Source: a virus (taxonomy: Duplodnaviria > Heunggongvirae > Uroviricota > Caudoviricetes). From it: a DNA stretch of 36,545 nucleotides. The notes under the pieces were generated by a model. It was not told the DNA's origin. It was given only the letters and a program-made list of their open reading frames with translations, and did not search any database. The translations under genes and the position numbers were made by a program. Location of the stretch: the IMG/VR virus record IMGVR_UViG_2585427736_000013. One strand, written 5' to 3'. This document shows, piece after piece, positions 5,780 through 31,283 of the stretch. The stretch's first letter is position 1. Each line of letters begins with the position of its first letter.

Positions 5780-8573
5780 TATCCGGGTCGCTTTCAGCGC
5801 CGTTGACAGACTGACCCGGCCTGCCGAAAACGCCCGCCGCCTGATGGGGCAGTTTGGTGACTCCATCCAGCGAACGCAGGGGGCGATCAAAAATCTCGAG
5901 CGTCAGGCGCGTTCATTTGAGCGCGCCCGTGACGCTGTCAGTAAAGCGGATGCGAGCATCGTGAAAGCACGACGCCAGCTTAACGCCCTTAATCAGTTAC
6001 AACGCACGGGTACAGTGCTCAGCGAAAAACAACAAAAGCTGATGCAGCAGTTAAGCACCCGGCTTGAACGCCTGAATGAATCGCGCACACGGGAAATTCA
6101 GAAAATGCGGGAGCTTGGCGGAGAGCTGAAACGCCACGGCATTTCCCTGACAGGCAGCGATAACACCATCCAGCAGGCCATCAGACGCACCGAACAGTAC
6201 AACAACCAGCTTGAACGCGAACGGCAGACGCTTGCGCGTGTAACGCGGGCGCGTGAGCGGTATTCGCGCGCGCAGGAAACTGCTGGAAAACTGAAAACAG
6301 GTGGTGCGCTGGCAATTGGTGCGGCAGCGGCTGGCGGCTATGCTGCCGGGCGTTTTTTGCAGCCTGCGATCGGGTTCGGGAAAGAGATGTCCCGCGTTCA
6401 GGCACTGACGCGAATCGATCAGAACAGCCCACAGTTTAAGGCGCTGCGTGAGCAGGCGTTAAAACTTGGCTCTGAAACGCAGTTCACCGCAGGCGATGCC
6501 GCCAGTGGACAGGCATTTCTTGCAATGGCTGGCTTCACACCGCAGGCCATTCAGGCTGCGCTTCCGGGCGTGCTGAGCATGGCAACGGCTGGCGGCATGG
6601 ATCTCGGCGAGACGGCGGATATTGGCTCAAATATCCTAACGCAGTTCGGCCTTTCTGCTGACCAGATGGACCGGGTTGGTGACACACTCACCGCAGCGTT
6701 TACCCGTACCAACACTGACCTTCGCGCACTGGGCGAAACCATGAAATATGCAGGTCCGGTGGCGGGTAAGCTGGGAATATCGCTGGAGCAGGCCGCAGCG
6801 ATGGCGGGCGTGCTGGCGAATATGGGTATCAGAGGGAGTGATGCCGGGACGGCAATGCGTGCCAGCCTGGCTCGTCTGGCATCACCGCCAAAGGCAGCAG
6901 CAGAGGCGCTGAAAGAGCTTGGTGTGGCAGTTTCTGACGCGAACGGCAAAATGCGCCCGATGGAGGATGTGCTGGCCGACCTTTATAAAGCCACCCGCAA
7001 ATACGGGGAAGTTGACCGGGTATCCTTCTTTAAGGACATCGCCGGGGAAGAGGCTTTCACATCGTTTATGGCGCTCGTTGATGCAGCGGGTGACGGGTCC
7101 TTACCCAAACTGAGAAAAGAACTTGAAGGCGCGCGCGGTGAGGCTGAACGCACAGCAAAGGTTATGGCCAACAACCTTGACGGCGATCTGAAATCACTCG
7201 GCAGTGCATGGGAAGGGGTGCGCATCCGCATTGCAGATCTGATTGACGGTCCGCTGCGTTCTGTCACGCAGTGGCTCACGCGTGTGGTATCAAAGGTGAC
7301 GGCGCTGGCGCAGGCCCATCCCGCACTGACGCGCCAGCTACTGATAGCAGGCGGTGCGTTGCTGGCAATGACTGCAACGGTTGGCTCGTTGTCGCTGGCT
7401 ATTGGTGTGCTTGCTGGTCCGCTGGCAAAACTGCGTCTTGGTTTTTCCCTCCTGACCGGATCAATGAATGCTGTCAGGGTCCTGCCAGCACTATGGGGAA
7501 TGGTGACGGGTTCCGTTTCTTTGCTGGGAGGTGCTATCGGGGCGCTGTTCAGTCCGGTTGGTCTTATCGTGGCTGCGCTTGCCGGAGCTGCCATTCTTAT
7601 CTGGAAATATTGGGATCCCATCAGGGCATTTTTTGCCGGGGTGTTCGGCGGGATTATGGAAAGGCTGACCCCGTTGCGCGAAACCTTTGAACGGTTTGGC
7701 CCTGTTTTTGACGTAATCGGAAGCGGGATCAGCCAGGTGTTTAACTGGTTTAAATCGCTGCTGTCACCGATGGAGTCCAGCAAGGAAACGCTGGATAAAT
7801 GTACCAGTGCTGGCGAGATATTCGGTAACGTTCTTGGTGGCGCGTTACAGCTTGTTCTGACGCCTGCAAAAATGTTGCTGGATACGCTGGCGTGGATACT
7901 TGAAAAACTCGGTGTGCTTCCGGATGAAGCGGAAAGGGCGAGAAAGAAAATCGAAGACGCACAGCGTGCGGCCATTCTTCAGGATAAGGTTGCTCTGTTT
8001 CAGGGAGACATTGCGAAAATCAATCCGCCGAAGTCTGCGGAAAATGGCAATGGCACCGGAGGCGATAAACCCAAAGACAACAAACCGCTCACAGACAGCA
8101 ATACCGGTACGCTACGCAGACTCAGCAAGATTGCTGATAACACAGGTAAGCTGGTTGATGAGACGAAAAAACGCATTGGCCCTGGCGATATTGTCTTTAA
8201 GAACCTGCCCCGCGCACTTGCTGTTCGTGGGGAGTGGCAGGAGCGGAAGATTGCGCAGGTCAGTAAGCCTGCCCCCGCAATTAAGATCACACCCGTGGTC
8301 CCGGCTCCGCTGCCTCCGGCGCTGGTCCCTGTTGTTACGGCCAGCTCCCGCCCAGTGGCGGAGGCCATACGATCGCCAGTGGCATCAGTTCCTGCAACTT
8401 CCCGTAACCGGGAGCCTGTTGCCTCCGGATTTGGCGGTGAAATTCATGTTCATCTGCATAACGTTGTTACGCAGAATCCCCGCGAACTGGCGAAACTGGT
8501 CGGTGAAATGGTCAGGGCAGAAATGGAACGGCGCACCCGTGCCGGGCGTGGCAGTTTTTACGATAAAGATTGA
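5766..8573 (+). CDS. T: tail tape measure protein
   Basis: Long ORF (track 5730..8573) with coiled-coil N-terminus, Ala/Gly-rich transmembrane-like central segments; start ambiguous between GTG 5730, ATG 5757 and ATG 5766. Confidence 0.9.
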   Translation: MKTLDIRVAFSAVDRLTRPAENARRLMGQFGDSIQRTQGAIKNLERQARSFERARDAVSKADASIVKARRQLNALNQLQRTGTVLSEKQQKLMQQLSTRLERLNESRTREIQKMRELGGELKRHGISLTGSDNTIQQAIRRTEQYNNQLERERQTLARVTRARERYSRAQETAGKLKTGGALAIGAAAAGGYAAGRFLQPAIGFGKEMSRVQALTRIDQNSPQFKALREQALKLGSETQFTAGDAASGQAFLAMAGFTPQAIQAALPGVLSMATAGGMDLGETADIGSNILTQFGLSADQMDRVGDTLTAAFTRTNTDLRALGETMKYAGPVAGKLGISLEQAAAMAGVLANMGIRGSDAGTAMRASLARLASPPKAAAEALKELGVAVSDANGKMRPMEDVLADLYKATRKYGEVDRVSFFKDIAGEEAFTSFMALVDAAGDGSLPKLRKELEGARGEAERTAKVMANNLDGDLKSLGSAWEGVRIRIADLIDGPLRSVTQWLTRVVSKVTALAQAHPALTRQLLIAGGALLAMTATVGSLSLAIGVLAGPLAKLRLGFSLLTGSMNAVRVLPALWGMVTGSVSLLGGAIGALFSPVGLIVAALAGAAILIWKYWDPIRAFFAGVFGGIMERLTPLRETFERFGPVFDVIGSGISQVFNWFKSLLSPMESSKETLDKCTSAGEIFGNVLGGALQLVLTPAKMLLDTLAWILEKLGVLPDEAERARKKIEDAQRAAILQDKVALFQGDIAKINPPKSAENGNGTGGDKPKDNKPLTDSNTGTLRRLSKIADNTGKLVDETKKRIGPGDIVFKNLPRALAVRGEWQERKIAQVSKPAPAIKITPVVPAPLPPALVPVVTASSRPVAEAIRSPVASVPATSRNREPVASGFGGEIHVHLHNVVTQNPRELAKLVGEMVRAEMERRTRAGRGSFYDKD

Positions 8574-23381: not shown

Positions 23382-23906
23382 CGCGCTTCGCTTGTCTGCT
23401 GCTTCGCCGGGGCATAAAAAATTTATGCCCCGACTCTCCAGCTCCTGTATCAGTCAGATAATTTCACGACGCTTTCCTGCTTATTGCCATCATCGACGGT
23501 CAGACTCTTACGCAATCCCACCGCGTTGACTGCGTGTTCTCGCCGCCTCAGTGCGATTTTGACGGCCTTACCTTTCACCCCATCAAATCAGAATCCCTCA
23601 CGTATTTTTCACGCTCAGCGTGAGAAATACGGCCATTCTGTCGTGTCGCTGCGACATCGTTAAGGGAACGCTATTTACCCCCTGAAACGCGGGCTGTTCC
23701 CCCGTCACCTGCGCGCAGAAAAAAACGCGTTTTTTTGTGCACGCACGGATCCTTGACGGATCCAGCCGCCATGCGGGCCGGAAGGGTAAAAAGTCGTTCA
23801 AAAAAATTGTGCAAATTTGTGCACTATTGTGCGGTGTATAAAATGAAAATATGGCGGTGTTATTACTGCCCAACAAGTAGTTATACTTACGTTATGGGCG
23901 TGCATA
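23382..23906. other. cos-proximal non-coding region (cos inferred, not mapped)
   Basis: 525 bp without a credible ORF directly after portal gene Q, where P2-type genomes place cos; 11-bp-arm palindrome 23408-23432, 15-bp-arm inverted repeat 23601-23631, palindrome 23644-23656, A7CGCGT7 palindrome 23719-23736. Confidence 0.35.
23807..23842 (+). promoter_or_regulatory. three phased direct repeats TTGTGC(A/G) plus -10-like TATAAA upstream of phd-doc
   Basis: Repeats begin at 23807, 23817 and 23827 (exact 10-bp phasing); TATAAA at 23837-23842. Confidence 0.4.
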
Positions 23907-24263
23907 ATGGAAATGAATATGAAAACTGTAACTGATGATGAATTTCGTGAGAACCTGAGTGAAATTCTGGATTACCTTTCTTCCGGTGGCAGTGTCGTTA
24001 TCACGGCGCAGGGAGGGAAGGATGTTGTTCTTGCTGGTTCTGATCTTAGTCCTGAAATACGGGCTGTCCTTGGCAAAACCAAAAAACTGCGGGATCAAAT
24101 AAACAAAATGAAGCAACCACTCTTAATAAATGCAGTGAGAGATCTGGAAAAACGTCATCCAGCTCTTGTCGCACAGAGAAAAAAAGGATTGTCTTTTGAA
24201 GATGCAATGAAGCGTACAAGAGAAAAACATGCGGATATCATTAAAAAGCTTGAGGATAACTGA
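23907..24263 (+). CDS. phd: Phd/YefM-type antitoxin (long form, 118 aa)
   Basis: N-terminal region resembles the Phd/YefM fold (FRENLSEILDYLSSGGSVVITAQGGKDVVLA); stop overlaps doc start (TGATG); three in-frame ATGs within 12 nt, so the exact start is uncertain. Confidence 0.7.
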   Translation: MEMNMKTVTDDEFRENLSEILDYLSSGGSVVITAQGGKDVVLAGSDLSPEIRAVLGKTKKLRDQINKMKQPLLINAVRDLEKRHPALVAQRKKGLSFEDAMKRTREKHADIIKKLEDN

Positions 24264-24670
24264 TGGACATAGTGTTTTTGTCAAAAGAACAAGTAGAACG
24301 TATCCATGCTGAAACTTTACCCCAGAGCGGAAATGCCAATGACGGGCTACTTGAAGGTGCTTTAAATCGCGTCAGGACACTACACTACTATGAAGGGGTT
24401 GATGATATTCATGCTCTGGCTGCTATGTATTTGATTGGTATAGCTAAGGCTCATGCCTTTCATGATGGGAATAAACGCACAGCTTTTCAGGCTGCATCAA
24501 TATTTTTAATGATGAACTCTTCCGAACTTTCAAACTCCCTGCTGCTGGTTAAATTAACGGTGTTTTCAGCAATGGGGATAGCTACCCTTGAGGAAGTTAC
24601 CTTTGCTTTGAAATTGCTGTCTGATTATGGCAATGAATTAATCAGCGACTACGAAGAAGATTATATTTAA
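24263..24670 (+). CDS. doc: Doc (death-on-curing) Fic-fold toxin
   Basis: 135 aa containing the Doc-type motif HAFHDGNKRTA. Confidence 0.85.
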   Translation: MDIVFLSKEQVERIHAETLPQSGNANDGLLEGALNRVRTLHYYEGVDDIHALAAMYLIGIAKAHAFHDGNKRTAFQAASIFLMMNSSELSNSLLLVKLTVFSAMGIATLEEVTFALKLLSDYGNELISDYEEDYI

Positions 24671-24836
24671 TGCTGGCATACTCTGTCGTGTTAAGACAAC
24701 AGCCTTTGCGGAGACAGGGCAGGGTGCCAGACTTGCCCGCAGCGCGTCTGACATGAGCAGTTATTCATCTTTTTTATTGTTTTTCTCCATGCATGGCGAC
24801 AGTGCGCCCCGATAAAATTAAAAGCCGTCAAATTCG

Positions 24837-25172
24837 TCATTCATGCGTTTTTTCTTCATGGTCTGTCACTTCTCTCCTGATAAATTCATTGCACAAATCA
24901 ACGCACTCATTGCAGATGTAAACAGACGGTCCGGCAATCAGCTTTGTGACTTCGTACTGGGATTTATTGCAGAAGCTGCAATAAATCGTCTTCTCGCCTG
25001 AAGTCCATGTTTTGCTGGTTTCGCCAGACATCAGTTGTTTGATGTCTTTTTCACGACGAAGAACTATCCGGCCACATTCAGCTATTTTTTGGATGTTGAC
25101 ATTTTCTTCTTTCGCCAGCGCTTCCATTCGCTCAATCAGTCGCTGCGCTTTTTCTCTGTCAATGTGTTGCAT
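24837..25172 (-). CDS. small protein with C-terminal ClpX-type C4 zinc-binding domain
   Basis: 111 aa; residues 64-100 ([38 protein letters not shown]) closely match the N-terminal zinc-binding domain of ClpX as recalled; AAGGGG Shine-Dalgarno. Confidence 0.8.
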
Positions 25173-25206
25173 TGTGTCCCCTTTGTTTATGTTCCCGGAT
25201 TAAAGT

Positions 25207-25230
25207 CATCAGGGCGGATGCGCCCTGATG
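25207..25230 (-). terminator. strong hairpin between parR and the zinc-binding-domain gene
   Basis: perfect 10-bp stem CATCAGGGCG/CGCCCTGATG with 4-nt loop, 6 nt past the parR stop; weak U-tract. Confidence 0.4.
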
Positions 25231-25235
25231 TTGTG

Positions 25236-25547
25236 TTATTCGGGAAATAATGCCCGGATATTTCCGGCCATCTGACTGGTTATCTGTGCGGTTGGTACTG
25301 GCTGTGACACGGGGCGTTCTGTCCTGGTTTGTGTCAGGGATAACGCTTCATCGTCAGCCCATGCAGCCAGTCGGTAAGCCTCTGCCGGATTAATTTTCAT
25401 AAGTGCCAGTCCGGCCAGAAAAGCCACGCGTTGACCACTTTTGCGGGCTTCTGGTGTAAGGCTGTCCAGCCAGGCGCATGCTTCGCCTTCGTTCTTGACG
25501 GCGGCGGGCTTCAGATAGAAACTTATCCGTCTGGTTGGTGTCGTCAT
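25236..25547 (-). CDS. parR: ParR/StbB-like centromere-binding protein
   Basis: Track frame 25236..25682; start placed at ATG (rc of 25545-25547) with AAGGAG Shine-Dalgarno just after parM stop; N-terminus resembles plasmid R1 ParR as recalled. Confidence 0.7.
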   Translation of the reverse strand: MTTPTRRISFYLKPAAVKNEGEACAWLDSLTPEARKSGQRVAFLAGLALMKINPAEAYRLAAWADDEALSLTQTRTERPVSQPVPTAQITSQMAGNIRALFPE

Positions 25548-25551
25548 TGGT

Positions 25552-26511
25552 TTACTCCTTGTCCATTGCGTACAGCCCATTAACCAGAGCAAACTGTGGC
25601 ACCCCGTCCGCGATGAAAGTCGCATTAACTCCGCAGGCTTCGCGGATAGCGGGTGCCACAATCTCCGCCCCGCCACCGACAACCATCACCCGCCCGTAAC
25701 CCGAAAAACCCGCCAGCGCGCGGATCACGCGTTGTTTCAGTGTTTCTTCCTTTTCACGAATAACCGCCATCAGGCTGGCGTAATGCGCGTCATTGTGGAT
25801 GTGCTGGCGCAACCAGGCTTCATCATGGCGATGTTCGATAATGGTATTGGCGATGTGGTGACTGGTACGCATACCGTTAGTGGCCATCACCGACAGTACG
25901 GCATCGGCCATCAGGGAAACGCCTACGTGTGGATCGCAAAACACCTGGCTGATACCTGCCAGTTGCCCCTGAACCTTTGCCACATCCAGTGTGGTTCCGC
26001 CTAAATCCACAATCAGCAGGGATTCAAACGGACTCATGTCAGCCAGTGCCTTAAAGCCAGCCGGAATGGATTCAGGCATAACCCGTACGTTACGGATAGT
26101 GAATGCTTCGCCGTTCTGGTACTCCACCGGGCGCATGACGTTCGCTTTTTTGCGGTTGATGTTGGCCATGTCCGGCTGTGCGTTTGTGTCGAAATATTCG
26201 CTCAGTGGCAGGGTGACAACCACATCCACTTCCTGTGGTGTGATGCCTGATTTGACCAGCGCGTGGTGAATGGCGATTACATTCACATCGCTGTACTGGT
26301 ATTGCGTGTCGGTCGTCTGGACAAAGCGATCGCTGACCGGATCAAAACCATAGCGCACGCCATCAAGCATGTAGTTCGCGGGCTGCGTGCCACCGAACGG
26401 CGCAGACCATTCCGACTTGAAGCTGTTCGGGCTGATGGCGTTGCGGCGTTCGCCGTTCTCAGTCCATGCCAGCTTGATGTTGGTGGAGCCGTCGTCGATA
26501 CAAATTTTCAT
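25552..26511 (-). CDS. parM: ParM/StbA-like actin-type segregation ATPase
   Basis: 319 aa; extended similarity to plasmid R1 ParM as recalled (IDDGSTNIKL, ISPNSF, QYSDVNV, RKKANV, VMPESIPAG, LLIVDLGGTTLD, GGGAE, LVNGLY). Confidence 0.85.
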   Translation of the reverse strand: MKICIDDGSTNIKLAWTENGERRNAISPNSFKSEWSAPFGGTQPANYMLDGVRYGFDPVSDRFVQTTDTQYQYSDVNVIAIHHALVKSGITPQEVDVVVTLPLSEYFDTNAQPDMANINRKKANVMRPVEYQNGEAFTIRNVRVMPESIPAGFKALADMSPFESLLIVDLGGTTLDVAKVQGQLAGISQVFCDPHVGVSLMADAVLSVMATNGMRTSHHIANTIIEHRHDEAWLRQHIHNDAHYASLMAVIREKEETLKQRVIRALAGFSGYGRVMVVGGGAEIVAPAIREACGVNATFIADGVPQFALVNGLYAMDKE

Positions 26512-26660
26512 GTAGCTTTTCCTTATGTTGATTAATTAATCGGTTACAGGATTTTTAAATCCCGCTTTTGCCTGTTTTGTGCGCGCTTCATATATCGCGG
26601 CGCGTTTTTTGCTCATTTACGGGATTTGTGAGTCCCGTTTCTGTCTGTTTTTTGTTTCCA
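26512..26660. promoter_or_regulatory. candidate parC-like centromere/promoter region upstream of parM
   Basis: Two units of palindrome plus CTGTTTT-containing direct repeat (26547-26581 and 26620-26654) flanking a GC hairpin with T6 (26581-26610); the second unit overlaps the 3' end of gene A. Confidence 0.35.
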
Positions 26661-29410
26661 CTGGTCAGGCTACCCCGCAGCAGGTCTGCTTTGCGGTGGG
26701 CGCGTTCAGTGGTTTCACTGATTCTCTGTGCGTGCTCTGCGTCACGGATGGCGCGCAGCATGTCAGAAAGCACGGTAACGGGGGTTTTCATGGTGTTCTG
26801 GTCCTGCTGAAGTGTGGATGCCAGACGTGCGGCGGCTTCGGGGTCTGATGCCCCCAGTTGTTCCAGATAGCTGGCGACCGGGTTATGGCGGATCTCTGTG
26901 CTGCTTACGCCGTGATTACGGCTCAGGCGCTGCCAGAACTGCGTGATTCGGCTGTCCGGGCGGGTATCCGGTTTGCGTACAATTTCAAATCCCTGCGGTG
27001 CAATGATGCTACCGTCAACGTACAGGCTGCCGCCCCGTAACAGGTGCTGCATCTGCTGTTCACCGATATGCAGGCCGAGAGATTCGGCAGATTCCCGCCA
27101 TTCTTTAGCGAGTAATTCGTGGTTATCAGGCAAAGGCCGCTGCTGTTTGCGGCTCTGTGTCCAGCTCTGCATTTCATCACTGCTGTTTTTTGCCTGTTTG
27201 TCACGAAGCGAACGCATCAGCGCCCGGCGTTCGTGCCGTTTCAGTGAGCGCATCCATTCGTTCACTTCAACGCCGTCAGGGAGCTGCGGCCACGGTGCTG
27301 GTCGTTCTTCCGGCTGTTCTGTCCCGTTGTTGTCCGTTTCCTGTACACGGGGACAGTTATTGCCACGAGTCCAAGGGGCGGCAGGGCCGCCCTGAAGGTC
27401 AAAACCATTTTCGCGGGCGCTGTCTTCCGCTTCCGGTTTGCGTCTTACCAGCTTCCAGTTATCCGGATGCGTGCATACGCGGGAAGACTCCCCGATGAGT
27501 GGTGACCAGATCCCGTAAATCTGTACGCTCTGTTCGCCGTAATCGTTCAGCTCATCGGCGAGGTCGTAGGCGGTGCGAATCAGGTAGTCTTTACGTGGAA
27601 CAAGTACGCCACCCTGTTTTTCAATGTAGGAGGCAAAACACCCGGCATCGGCGGCAGCGAGTACCGCATCCATTGCGTCATTCTTCAGCCGTTGCGGGCC
27701 TTCCGGGTTGCGTGCCATCTGGCTGGCAAGGCGGCGGAGTTCACGCCACACCTGACGGGAGGGAATGCCAAAGAACTGGAACTGGCGGACCCGGTGAAGG
27801 CGCGCCCAGCCGATGGCGCGTTCCACGCTCTCGGCCATTGATTTTCCTGTTTCGTGGTCAACGCGTGGCTTGCCCGTTTTCGGGTCGATGCCATCCACGG
27901 CGCGGCTGTCCAGGTTCTTTCCGATGTAGGTGGCGATGTAGCTGGTTGGTGTGCCTTTTGAGCCGTCGACATACTCCACCTTAAAGCGTGGGGTAATATC
28001 ATCACCCAGCTCGTGGCGGTCTTCCTGAATGGCAATATCGCGGGTGATGGCCACGATGCTGTCGATTTCTTCCGGATGAGCAAAGACCATCATGTGCCAG
28101 TGCACGGTGCCGTCATGGTGAGGCTCCACCGTGCGGATGCCATACCAGCGCAGGCCGTCGCGGTTCAGTTTTTTGCGGACCGCCGCAAAAAACGTGTTAA
28201 CCAGGTAATCGCTGGAGTCGCGCATAGTGGCCCCGTTCCATTTGGGGTTCGGATGACCGTTCTCTGTTGTGGCGTGGTATTTTGACGGGCAGGTGACAGT
28301 CAGAAACACCGCTTTGTCGCCACGGGCTTCGGCCAGAAGTTCCAGCCCCTTCATGGTGGCCATCATTTCTGCCTTACGGTGAACCGGGTTACTTACTCCC
28401 GCGTAATACACTGTCTCAAGATCAATCGTGAACCCGTCTTCGTTTTCCAGCATGAAACTTTTCAGGAAATCGCGTGTTTTCTCGCGCTGTGCGCGAAACT
28501 CGCTTAACGCGTCCTGGCTCAGATAGGGTGATGTTTTTCTGGAAACCAGACAGGCGGCGCGGAGTTGTTCTTCTCTCCACTCGCAACGTAACAGCCACAG
28601 TTTGCGTTTCCACCAGTCCGCACAGGTCAGGCGAAGGATTGCGCCCGGTAACAGTTCCGTATCCGGTGCGTTCCTCCGGTCCTTGTCTGTTGTCAGTGCG
28701 TCATAATGCGGCGGCATGGTGTGCAGATGTAACGCCATGCGTGCCAGCATCTGATATGCCTTCAGCGCCACCTCCATGGTCAGTTCACCATCGGTCGCAC
28801 CAAAGTTATCGCAGAGTGTTTCGAAGGTGCTGCTGAACATCGCCGCTGTCATAGTGGCCAGCGTCTGTATCTGGTGCTTGTTGAGCTGTGGCAGGTAAAG
28901 CAAATCGTCCAGGCGTTCACGTCCGGCAAGGGAGCGATAACCCGGAGTTAGCCAGCGACGGTCGGTGCGGTCCAGACGTTCGAATATTTTGCGCAGGGTT
29001 CCGCGCGCGTAACGTTCAGCCTGCCAGTTCTTTTTTCCTTTCTGGCGATCGGCTTCCTGTTTTTTGCGCAGGAAGGAGAGGTGGCGAATAAGCGGGTCGC
29101 GCAGATAGGACGGCAGCAGGCGCAGCGAGGCCATGGCTTCATCCACCGCGCCGCGTGCCTGTCTTCTGGCGTCTCCTGCCAGCGTGATGGTTTTGTCCTG
29201 TTTTTCCTGTGCGTCCAGGCTTTTATTAATCAGGTTGCCCAGTGGCGTGGCGGAGAACGCCGCATCAGCCTTTTCCTGGCGGCGCTCGTTCTCTGCCCGG
29301 TAGGCATCCAGCCAGGAGGAAAGCGCGGATTCAGGAGCGGGGATCCCCGTTCCTTCACGCCCCACTGCGTGGCGCGGTTGTTGCCAGTCCCTGATGTACT
29401 CTGCCGTCAT
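26588..29410 (-). CDS. A: replication initiation endonuclease, gpA-like (rolling-circle HUH family)
   Basis: 940 aa with HUH-type motif (TVHWHMMVFAH); position upstream of the cos-side accessory slot. Confidence 0.88.
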   Translation of the reverse strand: MTAEYIRDWQQPRHAVGREGTGIPAPESALSSWLDAYRAENERRQEKADAAFSATPLGNLINKSLDAQEKQDKTITLAGDARRQARGAVDEAMASLRLLPSYLRDPLIRHLSFLRKKQEADRQKGKKNWQAERYARGTLRKIFERLDRTDRRWLTPGYRSLAGRERLDDLLYLPQLNKHQIQTLATMTAAMFSSTFETLCDNFGATDGELTMEVALKAYQMLARMALHLHTMPPHYDALTTDKDRRNAPDTELLPGAILRLTCADWWKRKLWLLRCEWREEQLRAACLVSRKTSPYLSQDALSEFRAQREKTRDFLKSFMLENEDGFTIDLETVYYAGVSNPVHRKAEMMATMKGLELLAEARGDKAVFLTVTCPSKYHATTENGHPNPKWNGATMRDSSDYLVNTFFAAVRKKLNRDGLRWYGIRTVEPHHDGTVHWHMMVFAHPEEIDSIVAITRDIAIQEDRHELGDDITPRFKVEYVDGSKGTPTSYIATYIGKNLDSRAVDGIDPKTGKPRVDHETGKSMAESVERAIGWARLHRVRQFQFFGIPSRQVWRELRRLASQMARNPEGPQRLKNDAMDAVLAAADAGCFASYIEKQGGVLVPRKDYLIRTAYDLADELNDYGEQSVQIYGIWSPLIGESSRVCTHPDNWKLVRRKPEAEDSARENGFDLQGGPAAPWTRGNNCPRVQETDNNGTEQPEERPAPWPQLPDGVEVNEWMRSLKRHERRALMRSLRDKQAKNSSDEMQSWTQSRKQQRPLPDNHELLAKEWRESAESLGLHIGEQQMQHLLRGGSLYVDGSIIAPQGFEIVRKPDTRPDSRITQFWQRLSRNHGVSSTEIRHNPVASYLEQLGASDPEAAARLASTLQQDQNTMKTPVTVLSDMLRAIRDAEHAQRISETTERAHRKADLLRGSLTSGNKKQTETGLTNPVNEQKTRRDI

Positions 29411-29416
29411 AGTGAT

Positions 29417-29782
29417 TTACTTCGTCATGCCATTCAGGGTGTCGCGGCAGACTGTAGCCAGCCGCTGAATTTCCAGCACGGTGTCTTCTGTGTCGGCATG
29501 GCGATGTGTGATGCGGATGCTGTCGGCAATCACATCGACGATTGCAGAGGATGGGCGCTGGTAAATGCCAATAACGTACGGGGTGCCACCTTCAATGCGG
29601 TAAAGCCTGTAATTTCCCTCGTGGCTGTCAATCATGTAGCGACCATCAATAACAATCTTTCCGTCAGCGAGCTGCGGTACAGGCAGGGATTTCAGGTACA
29701 TGTCATAACGTTCACGCACGCGAACGGCAAGATCACGCTCTGTGTTGAGCAGGTATTCAAGAAAGTCGTTGGCGAGAATCAT
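29417..29782 (-). CDS. hypothetical phage protein (121 aa) immediately upstream of A
   Basis: Compact ORF, 6 nt from A start, same strand. Confidence 0.55.
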   Translation of the reverse strand: MILANDFLEYLLNTERDLAVRVRERYDMYLKSLPVPQLADGKIVIDGRYMIDSHEGNYRLYRIEGGTPYVIGIYQRPSSAIVDVIADSIRITHRHADTEDTVLEIQRLATVCRDTLNGMTK

Positions 29783-29854
29783 TGCGGCAATCCTCTTGTT
29801 ACAGATGTGCGAAGGCCTCCCGCCGCAAGGTGCAGGAAAGGCCCGGAACAGGAA

Positions 29855-30085
29855 TTAATGGAGTTTGTTTTGCTGCTGGATGAGCTGCTGAAGCTCGCGC
29901 AGATCATCCGCCAGATAGCTGAAAACAGCGGATGAGTAGAGGTTTGAAAGTTCGCAGCTACGCTCATGCAGCATATTGATGTGCATGATTTTAGCGACGC
30001 GGAATGCGCGGGAAAGTCTGCGGTTGATTTCAGTCTGGATGTGACGACGCTCCGCGATAGCGCGGTGCTGTTTGCGGTTTGCCAT
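29855..30085 (-). CDS. hypothetical phage protein (76 aa)
   Basis: ORF with basic helical character; weak ribosome-binding site. Confidence 0.45.
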   Translation of the reverse strand: MANRKQHRAIAERRHIQTEINRRLSRAFRVAKIMHINMLHERSCELSNLYSSAVFSYLADDLRELQQLIQQQNKLH

Positions 30086-30452
30086 GGTGTGGCCTCGTAC
30101 GTAGTAAGTTTTTGAAACTCACCAACCCGAGGTTCCAAGCTCAGGGTGGCGAGACGTACAGGGTTGGAACTACCGGCTACGCACGAACCCGGCCCGACCG
30201 AAGTCGGCCCCGTACGCCCCGCCATAATTCTGACGTGAAAAAGACGTGGCGATACAGTACGCACAAAAAAACCGCTGGCGCGGTTGTGCGCGTGCATAGT
30301 CGGCGGGGTTCCAATCCCGGCACCCGCTTTATGAGGTGCAGCGGAAATGTAACCTGACTGATTGCGGCATGGCAAGCGGTTTTTTTGTGAGAACGGCATA
30401 CTAAAAAATCCTGATACTGCTCCGGCCAGCGGTTTTCACTGGCCGGGTTTAA
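30086..30452. other. GC-rich structured non-coding stretch inside the early operon (candidate ncRNA or regulatory region)
   Basis: About 370 bp with no credible ORF; hairpin 30422-30446; minus-strand terminator-like CCGC/GCGG stem plus U7 (30265-30283); plus-strand hairpin followed by T7 (30362-30386); several other inverted repeats. Confidence 0.3.
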
Positions 30453-31283
30453 TTACTTCACCGGAACAAACGGAACAGCGGTATTGCTGGTCATGTATTG
30501 CGGTAGCGTGCCGTTCCATTTGTTGATTGCTTCCAGCTCCATAACGCCGGGATTCTGGCGCAGAGCTTCACCGCGTAAACGAATGGCGTCGGCTTCAGCC
30601 TGGGCTTTTGTGCGAATGGCATCAGCCTGTCCGGCAGCTTCTGCGCGCAACATGTTGGCTTCTGCTTCGCGTTGCTTGACTTCCTGTTCGCGTTGCAGGG
30701 TTTTCTGGTTTGCCGTGACTTTGGCGTTAATGCTGTCGATAACGGTTGGCGGATATTCCGGTTTACCGACATAAGAGAGGCTCATGACCTGAATGCCGAT
30801 GGGGGTCATCTCTTCCTGAATATCTTTAAGTGCTGAATCCAGCAGTTCAGACTTGCCACCGTCGATGAATTTATCGGTGGTCATTTTGCTGGCCAGTCGG
30901 TTGAGTGCGTCGGCGATCTTCTGGCGCAGGTCAGTGTCGGTAATGTCGTCCACGCCTTTGCGGTAGGTCTGAAACACTGTGGTAACTTTGGATGGATCGA
31001 CCTTGTAGGCCACGCCGATGTGATAGCCGATGGTTGTGCCGTCACTCATCTGGAAGCTGAACGGGTCATCGTAGGTCTTCATTTGTTTGAAGGTCGGGAA
31101 GATGTAAACCTCGGTATTCCAGCCAGTCCAGTAGCGGCCAACGCCAACCACTTCGCCAACGCCTTTGTCGTCGCCCAGCTTATTGACTTTGATGCCCACA
31201 TTACCTGGCTCAACGCGATCGCAGCCAACCAGCAGGATGGCGGCAAAAAGCGGGAGAATCTGAAAGAGTTTGAATTTCTTCAT
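30453..31283 (-). CDS. SPFH/band-7 (stomatin-prohibitin-HflK/C-like) lipoprotein
   Basis: 276 aa; signal peptide with lipobox LLVGC; SPFH-like core followed by Ala/Glu/Arg-rich coiled-coil tail. Confidence 0.75.
   Translation of the reverse strand: MKKFKLFQILPLFAAILLVGCDRVEPGNVGIKVNKLGDDKGVGEVVGVGRYWTGWNTEVYIFPTFKQMKTYDDPFSFQMSDGTTIGYHIGVAYKVDPSKVTTVFQTYRKGVDDITDTDLRQKIADALNRLASKMTTDKFIDGGKSELLDSALKDIQEEMTPIGIQVMSLSYVGKPEYPPTVIDSINAKVTANQKTLQREQEVKQREAEANMLRAEAAGQADAIRTKAQAEADAIRLRGEALRQNPGVMELEAINKWNGTLPQYMTSNTAVPFVPVK

Follow-up and report, generated by a model that had tools for sequence, protein, structure and literature searches.

A ClpX-type zinc-binding domain joined to a private helical hairpin in temperate enterobacterial phages, a possible decoy for ClpXP

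ClpXP sets the stability of phage replication initiators such as lambda O, of SOS and stress regulators, among them UmuD and (by way of RssB) sigma-S, and of cell-division proteins and a number of antitoxins, and the zinc-binding domain (ZBD) at the N-terminus of ClpX forms a constitutive and stable dimer. Here we describe a phage gene, referred to as the ZBD gene, that encodes a domain of this type with no ClpX ATPase attached, and which lies at positions 24837..25172 (minus strand) of a 36,545-nucleotide stretch of viral DNA (IMG/VR record IMGVR_UViG_2585427736_000013), the whole of which we call the window. Our preferred reading, to which we assign a probability of about 40%, is that the product is an early-expressed, stand-alone mimic of the ClpX N-domain that would titrate N-domain ligands.

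The ClpX ZBD is a docking platform for the adaptors SspB and RssB and for the substrates lambda O, MuA, UmuD' and FtsZ (PMC8808172, PMC7804408). Its deletion abolishes degradation of sigma-S and of lambda O, for which the domain is needed (PMC7804408), while sparing ssrA-tagged substrates (PMC7226468, PMC7804408). The antitoxin MqsA is recognized through the N-domain at a site overlapping that of the SspB tail; the SspB tail peptide competes for it, ZBD-binding peptides compete with N-domain substrates including MqsA, the ClpX substitutions L12S, L13A/D and H23A impair MqsA recognition, and the strongest nuclear magnetic resonance shifts with MqsA are at L13, K27, I29 and A30 (PMC8808172). Residues F16 and I46 (F17 and I47 in the gene numbering used below) form a hydrophobic pocket for trigger factor, lambda O and adaptors (PMC7804408). 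The isolated E. coli ZBD dimerizes readily and binds RssB, at a site that it is proposed to share with IraD, and when supplied in trans at 5-20 uM it inhibits RssB-dependent degradation of sigma-S by 0.6 uM ClpXP (PMC7226468, Fig. 1d). Tethering to the ZBD is sufficient to drive degradation, as illustrated by CLIPPER peptides (PMC12373786).

Several phages encode inhibitors of host proteases. Lambda CIII inhibits FtsH. Others include lambda RexB, which acts on the ClpP-dependent proteolysis of antitoxins, and T4 PinA and T7 gp4.5, which act on Lon (PMC10286901). All four are small accessory or early proteins that blunt a host ATP-dependent protease, stabilizing phage proteins or preventing antitoxin loss, and the protein described here may be related to them in kind, although we see no relationship in sequence. 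Nor could any relationship be detected to SspB, to RssB, to the Ira anti-adaptors or to other known phage protease inhibitors; any likeness to these lies in function only. None of these inhibitors is known to copy the substrate-receptor domain of the protease itself, and the decoy mechanism would be new if it holds.

Domain architecture and the ClpX-like groove

The ZBD gene is complete, as indicated by the list of open reading frames (ORFs), its match to PHROG 6797, its orthologues in phages P88 and PhiR44_2, and its PGAP name. It starts with ATG, encodes a product of 111 amino acids (aa), and is preceded by a Shine-Dalgarno-like AAGGGGA (25177..25183, minus strand) 4 nt before the start codon, as read from the sequence. 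The PHROG 6797 profile matches over almost the entire length (E=1.9e-57, residues 1-105 on positions 5-106 of 107). An AlphaFold2 model with a mean predicted local distance difference test score (pLDDT) of 79 divides the protein into an amphipathic, phage-specific helical hairpin at codons 1-48 (25029..25172; predicted helices 6-22 and 27-48, pLDDT 77-90 in this region), a linker at codons 49-61 (24990..25028), and, C-terminal to this, the ZBD with its own C-terminal helix. The linker is probably flexible, with pLDDT below 50 at residues 53-59, and varies in length, being 11 aa longer in a Salmonella homologue. The ZBD spans codons 62-102 (24867..24989), with Cys65, 68, 87 and 90, and is followed by an acidic tail, codons 103-111 and the stop codon (24837..24866), that forms the edge of a variable region; all of these segments are on the minus strand. 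The predicted pI is 6.0, mildly acidic. An earlier note, made from the letters alone, had described a 111-aa ORF with a helical N-terminus and a C4 zinc domain, and the ORF list, AlphaFold2 and Pfam all agree with it.

The identity of the zinc domain is clear. Pfam zf-C4_ClpX (PF06689) matches residues 64-99 with a score of 64.4 bits and E=8.5e-18, covering positions 2-38 of its 39, compared with a curated gathering score of 27 bits and with 77.5 bits for the N-terminus of E. coli ClpX itself, so the hidden Markov model search suggested by the earlier note is significant. Among solved structures the E. coli ClpX ZBD scores best, through 1OVX (E=6.8e-20) and 2DS5 (E=3.1e-19), and Foldseek superimposes the modelled domain on 2DS5, 2DS6, 2DS7 and 2DS8 with a root-mean-square deviation of 0.5-0.8 A over 38-40 residues. 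The match is not due to chance. Alignment of phage residues 62-102 with E. coli K-12 ClpX 12-52 shows 31 of 41 identical residues (76%), about three-quarters, and the earlier description of the two as almost identical was an overstatement. The zinc ligands C65, C68, C87 and C90 align with ClpX C15, C18, C37 and C40 and are invariant in the family alignment.

The AAA+ ATPase module of ClpX is absent, as the earlier note had recognized: the ORF stops at residue 111, and the NCBIfam ClpX equivalogs TIGR00382 and NF003745 match only over about their first 50 positions (3-53), with 49 bits against cut-offs of 359 and 371 bits. On every criterion examined, the protein belongs with the zf-C4_ClpX domain family and with PHROG 6797, and is not a ClpX. 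It shares with the E. coli ClpX ZBD its modelled fold and its C-x2-C-x18-C-x2-C zinc site, but differs in being phage-encoded, in having no AAA+ ring, in carrying its extra domain before rather than after the ZBD, and in two substitutions, L12 to T (family-wide) and H23 to Y. Two family ORFs in IMG/VR (L081 and L083) are extended to 282 and 235 aa with an unrelated C-terminus after 'FICDEC'; a frameshift or fusion has cost them the second half of the zinc site.

We mapped the ClpX groove residues (gene numbering, with roles from PMC8808172 and PMC7804408) onto 31 distinct family ZBDs. F17 (window F67) and I29 (window I79) are identical in all 31, A30 (window A80) in 30 and K27 (window K77) in 26. 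Position L13 (window I63) is I, V or L in all 31, position I47 (window F97) is I or V in 28, position H23 (window Y73) is H or Y in 29, and position L12 (window T62) is Thr in 26. The window protein therefore retains F17, K27, I29 and A30, has conservative replacements at L13 (to I) and I47 (to F), and is changed at L12 and H23. From these alignments the ligand groove appears to be largely conserved, with a family-specific change at L12.

The groove bears on a second reading, which we regard as doubtful, in which the ZBD acts independently of ClpX as a zinc-stabilized unit for dimerization or peptide binding, while the hairpin engages a different phage or host target, perhaps a factor in replication, partition or the lysis-lysogeny decision. 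The likeness to ClpX would then be a matter of descent and of constraints from the fold alone. The zf-C4_ClpX domain does occur as an accessory in cyanobacterial sigma factors (PMC11119718) and in two actinobacterial proteins (P0080 and P0111), and both the L12-to-T change and a divergent member (P0128) with only 22 of 41 ZBD residues identical to ClpX show that exact ClpX identity is not obligatory. However, the surface residues F17, K27, I29 and A30 are conserved although they are dispensable for zinc binding, and with a pI of 6.0 the protein is not an obvious DNA binder.

The hairpin is private to the family. Foldseek against the PDB matched the ZBD alone and returned nothing for the helical hairpin, and Pfam gave only sub-threshold noise there (NAF, E=0.12). 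An exhaustive phmmer search with the N-terminal 60 aa recovered just 13 clusters out of 1.84 billion representatives, so that the N-terminus, which the earlier note had called novel, has neither a PDB fold match nor a wide distribution. All intact clusters among the 13 also have the ZBD, and pairing of this domain with other C-terminal domains was rejected accordingly; one apparent alternative architecture (P0126, 459 aa) proved to be a hit to a low-complexity repeat. The hairpin is fast-evolving: in the homologues furthest from the window protein, those of Salmonella, E. coli L007, D6 and PhiR41_1, it keeps only 11-23 identical residues out of 48. An 'LRxxK' motif resembling the XB peptide of the SspB tail was noticed by eye in helix 2 (L38-K42), but was discarded: it does not reproduce the SspB tail at its hydrophobic positions, the Lys is not conserved and the segment is predicted to be helical. 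The PADLOC-DB defence-system models gave no match to the protein at E<=0.01, and a role as a known defence or anti-defence component was rejected.

The same features allow a third reading, in which the phage ZBD forms a heterodimer with a ZBD protomer of ClpX rather than with itself, through the conserved dimer interface, and either poisons the trimer-of-dimers as a dominant-negative or plants the hairpin on ClpX as a new docking site, in which case it would be an adaptor delivering chosen targets to ClpXP. In the P88-type lineage and in that of Salmonella the block AGPSVYIC(N/D)ECVDLCN is nearly identical to its ClpX counterpart, as such pairing might require. A flexible linker leading to a separate conserved N-terminal domain, as modelled, would be a typical adaptor layout, and tethering to the ZBD suffices for degradation (PMC12373786). 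We nonetheless think it unlikely, since the block has drifted in the D6/Ea22-linked lineage (AGDNVFICNECVKDCN), which is unexpected if exact complementarity to ClpX is required. A constitutive, stable ClpX ZBD dimer would also disfavour exchange of protomers. The ready self-dimerization of the isolated ClpX ZBD (PMC7226468) points in the same direction.

Age, selection and genomic contexts of the family

Although the ZBD resembles that of the host, it is not a recent copy. Its DNA is identical to E. coli clpX at 86 of 144 positions, the same codon is used at only 15 of the 33 positions with identical residues, and synonymous sites are saturated, with a proportion of synonymous differences (pS) of ~0.9; recent capture from host clpX was rejected on these grounds. 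Within the family, the ZBDs are identical at 26-32 of 40 residues, and in deep comparisons the ratio of nonsynonymous to synonymous substitution (dN/dS) is ~0.1-0.3 in both the hairpin and the ZBD. Family ZBDs are identical to ClpX at 26-35 of 41 residues in 29 of the 31 distinct sequences, and at 21-22 in the other two. The 76% identity together with the saturated synonymous sites marks the ZBD gene as an old capture kept by purifying selection, and because the ZBD has stayed near ClpX while the hairpin drifts, its resemblance to ClpX is maintained by selection. A comparison of the window gene with its E. coli L007 homologue (8001-8333) gave a pS of 0.30 in the ZBD half and 0.74 in the N-terminal half, which suggests either recombination inside the gene or extra constraint on the ZBD codons.

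These values make it barely credible that the gene is a relic without function, left over from the capture of a 5' piece of clpX. Pseudogenized or truncated copies are found (L087, P0010, P0019 and P0122) and the gene is dispensable, both of which a relic would explain. But both domains have dN/dS values of 0.1-0.3 across lineages whose synonymous sites are saturated, the two-domain architecture is fixed in all intact members, and the ribosome-binding site is good.

The window is an E. coli prophage of the P88 type, a P2-like phage of the genus Xuanwuvirus in the family Peduoviridae, and a 100% identical ZBD gene is present in a closely related prophage of E. coli strain CB6837. The orthologue in P88 is gp19, and PhiR44_2 also has one. 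The minus-strand gene order is cox ... derepression protein, gpA (26588-29410), parM (25552-26511), stbB (~25236-25547) and the ZBD gene, and from this order, the shared strand and analogy with P2 we infer that the ZBD gene is located at the end of the early lytic operon. Other P2-like prophages, in both E. coli and Salmonella, have two-domain homologues with 44-56% identity downstream of their gene A, with different intervening genes. Others, with 50-52% identity, are in the phage-plasmid D6 (orf93), PhiR41_1 and CMS-2020a, and those in D6 and PhiR41_1 sit among early accessory genes of the ea22/ead type. A scan of IMG/VR with the N-terminal alignment identified 73 loci, ~40 of them P88-like and ~35 on non-P2-like contigs of 34-108 kb, the latter mostly with an Ea22/Ead-like gene immediately upstream.

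When the neighbouring genes from six contexts were compared all against all by BLAST, no conserved partner gene emerged, and a two-gene system was rejected. The fixed architecture, the variety of contexts and the lack of a partner together indicate a two-domain, single-gene cassette that travels between early accessory regions in temperate phages of enterobacteria. The gene is accessory in this group of phages, being present in 112 of 5,426 complete E. coli genomes (2%), compared with 1,307 (688 at >=80% coverage) for the parM-stbB module, almost all of them chromosomal. In a relative lacking the gene (L086) a clean indel of ~400 bp (window ~24841-25243 by alignment) removes the ORF together with its upstream spacer, and homology restarts exactly at the ZBD stop codon. 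Where the ClpX-independent module is concerned, these contexts cut both ways. In P2-like phages the ZBD gene always follows the replication gene A, as might be expected of a replication or partition factor, but no partner gene is conserved beside it, and in D6 and the Ea22-linked contigs it occurs with neither gpA nor ParM nearby.

The upstream spacer contains a perfect 10-bp GC-rich hairpin (25207..25230) with arms CATCAGGGCG-gatg-CGCCCTGATG, found in a scan for terminator-like structures. It is terminator-like for the plus strand only, antisense to the operon, and L086 lacks it along with the ORF; it may provide insulation from convergent transcription or stabilize the mRNA.

The parM-stbB module at 25236-26511 (minus strand) is an actin-like partition system of the plasmid ParM (StbA)/StbB type, located right after gene A in an integrase-bearing P2-like prophage. 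Upstream of gene A, at ~29417-31283 (minus strand), are genes for an SPFH/Band-7 protein and a P4-epsilon-like 'derepression protein' (from comparison with L012 19568-21431), and both are unusual accessories in the early operon of a P2-like phage.

The domain call itself is already in public annotation, since PGAP names the product 'ClpX C4-type zinc finger protein' and it belongs to PHROG 6797, listed as function unknown. RefSeq uses 'carboxylate--amine ligase' for both P88 gp19 (NC_026014.1; L001 3709-4041), where a note mentions ClpX, and D6 orf93 (NC_050154.1; L009 5980-6300). This name finds no support in the sequence and appears to be a propagated misannotation.

ClpX-type zinc fingers are also encoded by short, apparently ZBD-only ORFs of PHROGs 12435 and 5259, in Pseudomonas phages phi1, BUCT566 and PP9W2, Caulobacter phage Cr30 and Bacillus phage G (gp258). 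These lack the N-terminal hairpin, belong to different PHROGs and have ZBDs only 40-55% identical. Examples of such ZBD-like ORFs are KT887557.1 30252-30368, NC_025422.1 81503-81670 and NC_023719.1 188416-188559, most being annotated as 'Clp protease ATP-binding subunit', and some matches in jumbo phages are full clpX genes. If those in Pseudomonas, Caulobacter and Bacillus phages are motor-less, capture of the ClpX receptor domain may be recurrent.

The neighbouring phd-doc genes and the cargo region

Immediately beyond the ZBD gene, on the plus strand, are phd (23907-24263), with a Phd/YefM antitoxin match of 29.2 bits that falls just under the Pfam cut-off, and doc (24263-24670), with a Fic/DOC match of E=3.5e-11; PGAP names both in the strain with the 100% identical ZBD gene. 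The adjacency reported by the earlier note is real, the two units being convergent with 166 bp between their stop codons. The note went on to propose that the ZBD protein might tune toxin activation or protect phage proteins from ClpXP. In one form of this idea it would shield Phd from ClpXP and so tune the activation of Doc, and there is some background for this, because ClpXP degrades the Phd of phage P1 (Lehnherr & Yarmolinsky 1995, as cited in PMC10286901) and another antitoxin, MqsA, is recognized through the ZBD (PMC8808172).

The linkage, however, is not conserved. The phd-doc genes adjoin the ZBD gene in 18 of the 112 E. coli genomes that carry it and in 4 of the ~40 P88-like IMG/VR loci, whereas the contexts in Salmonella, in other P2-like prophages of E. 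coli, in D6 and in PhiR41_1 all lack this adjacency. The two are on opposite strands and in different transcription units, the same slot is occupied elsewhere by a YafO toxin or hypothetical genes, and the ZBD gene, as part of an early lytic operon, would presumably be silent in the lysogen where phd-doc acts. We therefore rejected phd-doc as a functional partner by comparative genomics, and consider a dedicated regulatory role very improbable.

The interval between the portal and ZBD genes (23382-24836) is a variable cargo region, which we take to be the old/tin cargo hotspot of P2-like phages. Its length differs by ~1.7 kb among relatives, the portal match being offset by +1769 to +3458 from the ZBD start, and the slot is occupied in other phages by P88 gp20-22, a 174-aa hypothetical gene, YafO with a 197-aa upstream gene, or Ea22 fragments. 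Compared across these relatives the interval acts as a hotspot for cargo, much of it toxin-antitoxin genes, and the unconserved linkage and the varied content of the slot mark phd-doc as unrelated hotspot cargo. The last eight ZBD codons also vary with the downstream cargo, reading DHEEKTHE here and DKKGKNA in P88. A 49-aa ORF at 24691-24840 (minus strand) overlaps the ZBD stop codon through an ATGA, and in relatives, where a 175-aa gene comes immediately after stbB (or after the ZBD gene), the 5' end of that gene and the intergenic region before it are homologous to the DNA at 24696-24843; this ORF looks like a remnant truncated by insertion of phd-doc.

A candidate decoy for the ClpX N-domain

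We favour a role for this protein as a ligand-binding decoy, for several reasons. It has a bona fide ClpX ZBD by Pfam, by comparison with solved structures and by modelled superposition, with groove residues kept in the 31 family ZBDs; its resemblance to ClpX is maintained by selection; and free ZBD is a published inhibitor (PMC7226468). A host-directed function is also suggested by its carriage as a mobile cassette without a conserved partner, always among early accessory genes, and phage inhibition of host proteases is an established strategy (PMC10286901). The decoy or dominant-negative role that the earlier note had proposed thus has a published biochemical precedent, from which we infer the following mechanism.

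The ZBD gene would be transcribed with the early lytic operon (cox ... gpA-parM-stbB-ZBD), and its product would fold and dimerize like the host domain, presenting the same hydrophobic peptide groove with no unfoldase attached. It would bind the tails of adaptors (the XB peptide of SspB, and RssB) together with N-domain-dependent substrates such as initiators of the lambda O type, unfolded antitoxins (MqsA), UmuD and FtsZ, and so keep these ligands off ClpXP. Adaptor- and N-domain-dependent proteolysis would then be selectively dampened, leaving untouched the degradation of substrates of the ssrA type that are recognized at the pore. The hairpin could oligomerize the protein or provide a second contact, with the resulting avidity lifting it above the micromolar requirement of the bare ZBD. 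The pay-off to the phage could be longer-lived early and replication proteins, for which lambda O would be the paradigm on the non-P2-like contigs, and possibly a block to abortive infection by protease-triggered toxin-antitoxin systems, a strategy ascribed to RexB, PinA and gp4.5.

Several observations weigh against this reading. Thr replaces ClpX Leu12 in 26 of 31 family ZBDs and the window has Tyr at the His23 position, and because ClpX L12S and H23A each impair binding of the MqsA degron, the groove may have shifted in specificity or have a weaker affinity for some host ligands. The bare ZBD acts in trans only at a large molar excess, roughly 10-30-fold (PMC7226468), and oligomerization through the hairpin is a conjecture. 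The domain also occurs in proteins unrelated to proteolysis, the cyanobacterial sigma factors (PMC11119718). The gene is dispensable, with only ~9-16% of the E. coli genomes that carry parM-stbB also having it, and pseudogenized copies such as that in L087 exist. Finally, full-text literature searches found no paper characterizing any family member or any phage-encoded ZBD-only protein.

The closest experimental counterpart to the proposed decoy is the recombinant free ClpX ZBD (PMC7226468; Wojtyra et al. 2003, as cited in PMC7804408), which is likewise a motor-less domain. That is a laboratory construct, whereas the phage protein is the product of a natural gene with a conserved hairpin that may raise its potency or specificity. 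A further comparison is with the anti-adaptors IraD, IraM and IraP and the prophage-encoded AppY, which block delivery of sigma-S by RssB. The outcome would be the same if the phage ZBD sequesters RssB, a candidate phage target, but the folds are unrelated and the Ira proteins are stress-induced host regulators.

We propose tentatively that temperate enterobacterial phages have joined a captured ClpX receptor domain to a private hairpin, for oligomerization or targeting, to form an early decoy that selectively switches off adaptor- and N-domain-dependent proteolysis by ClpXP, stabilizing replication or early phage proteins and possibly blocking antitoxin loss or abortive infection. This is directly testable with established ClpXP assays. 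If true, viral inhibition of an AAA+ protease through mimicry of the protease's own receptor domain would have its first natural example, and the protein would be a natural, selective and genetically encoded inhibitor acting on the branch of ClpXP proteolysis that depends on adaptors and the N-domain, useful as a tool for separating that branch from degradation of the ssrA type. It would also represent a new host-mimicry counter-measure against protease-triggered toxin-antitoxin defence, in a family that, with representatives in 2% of complete E. coli genomes and in three phage types, is common enough to matter for prophage biology.

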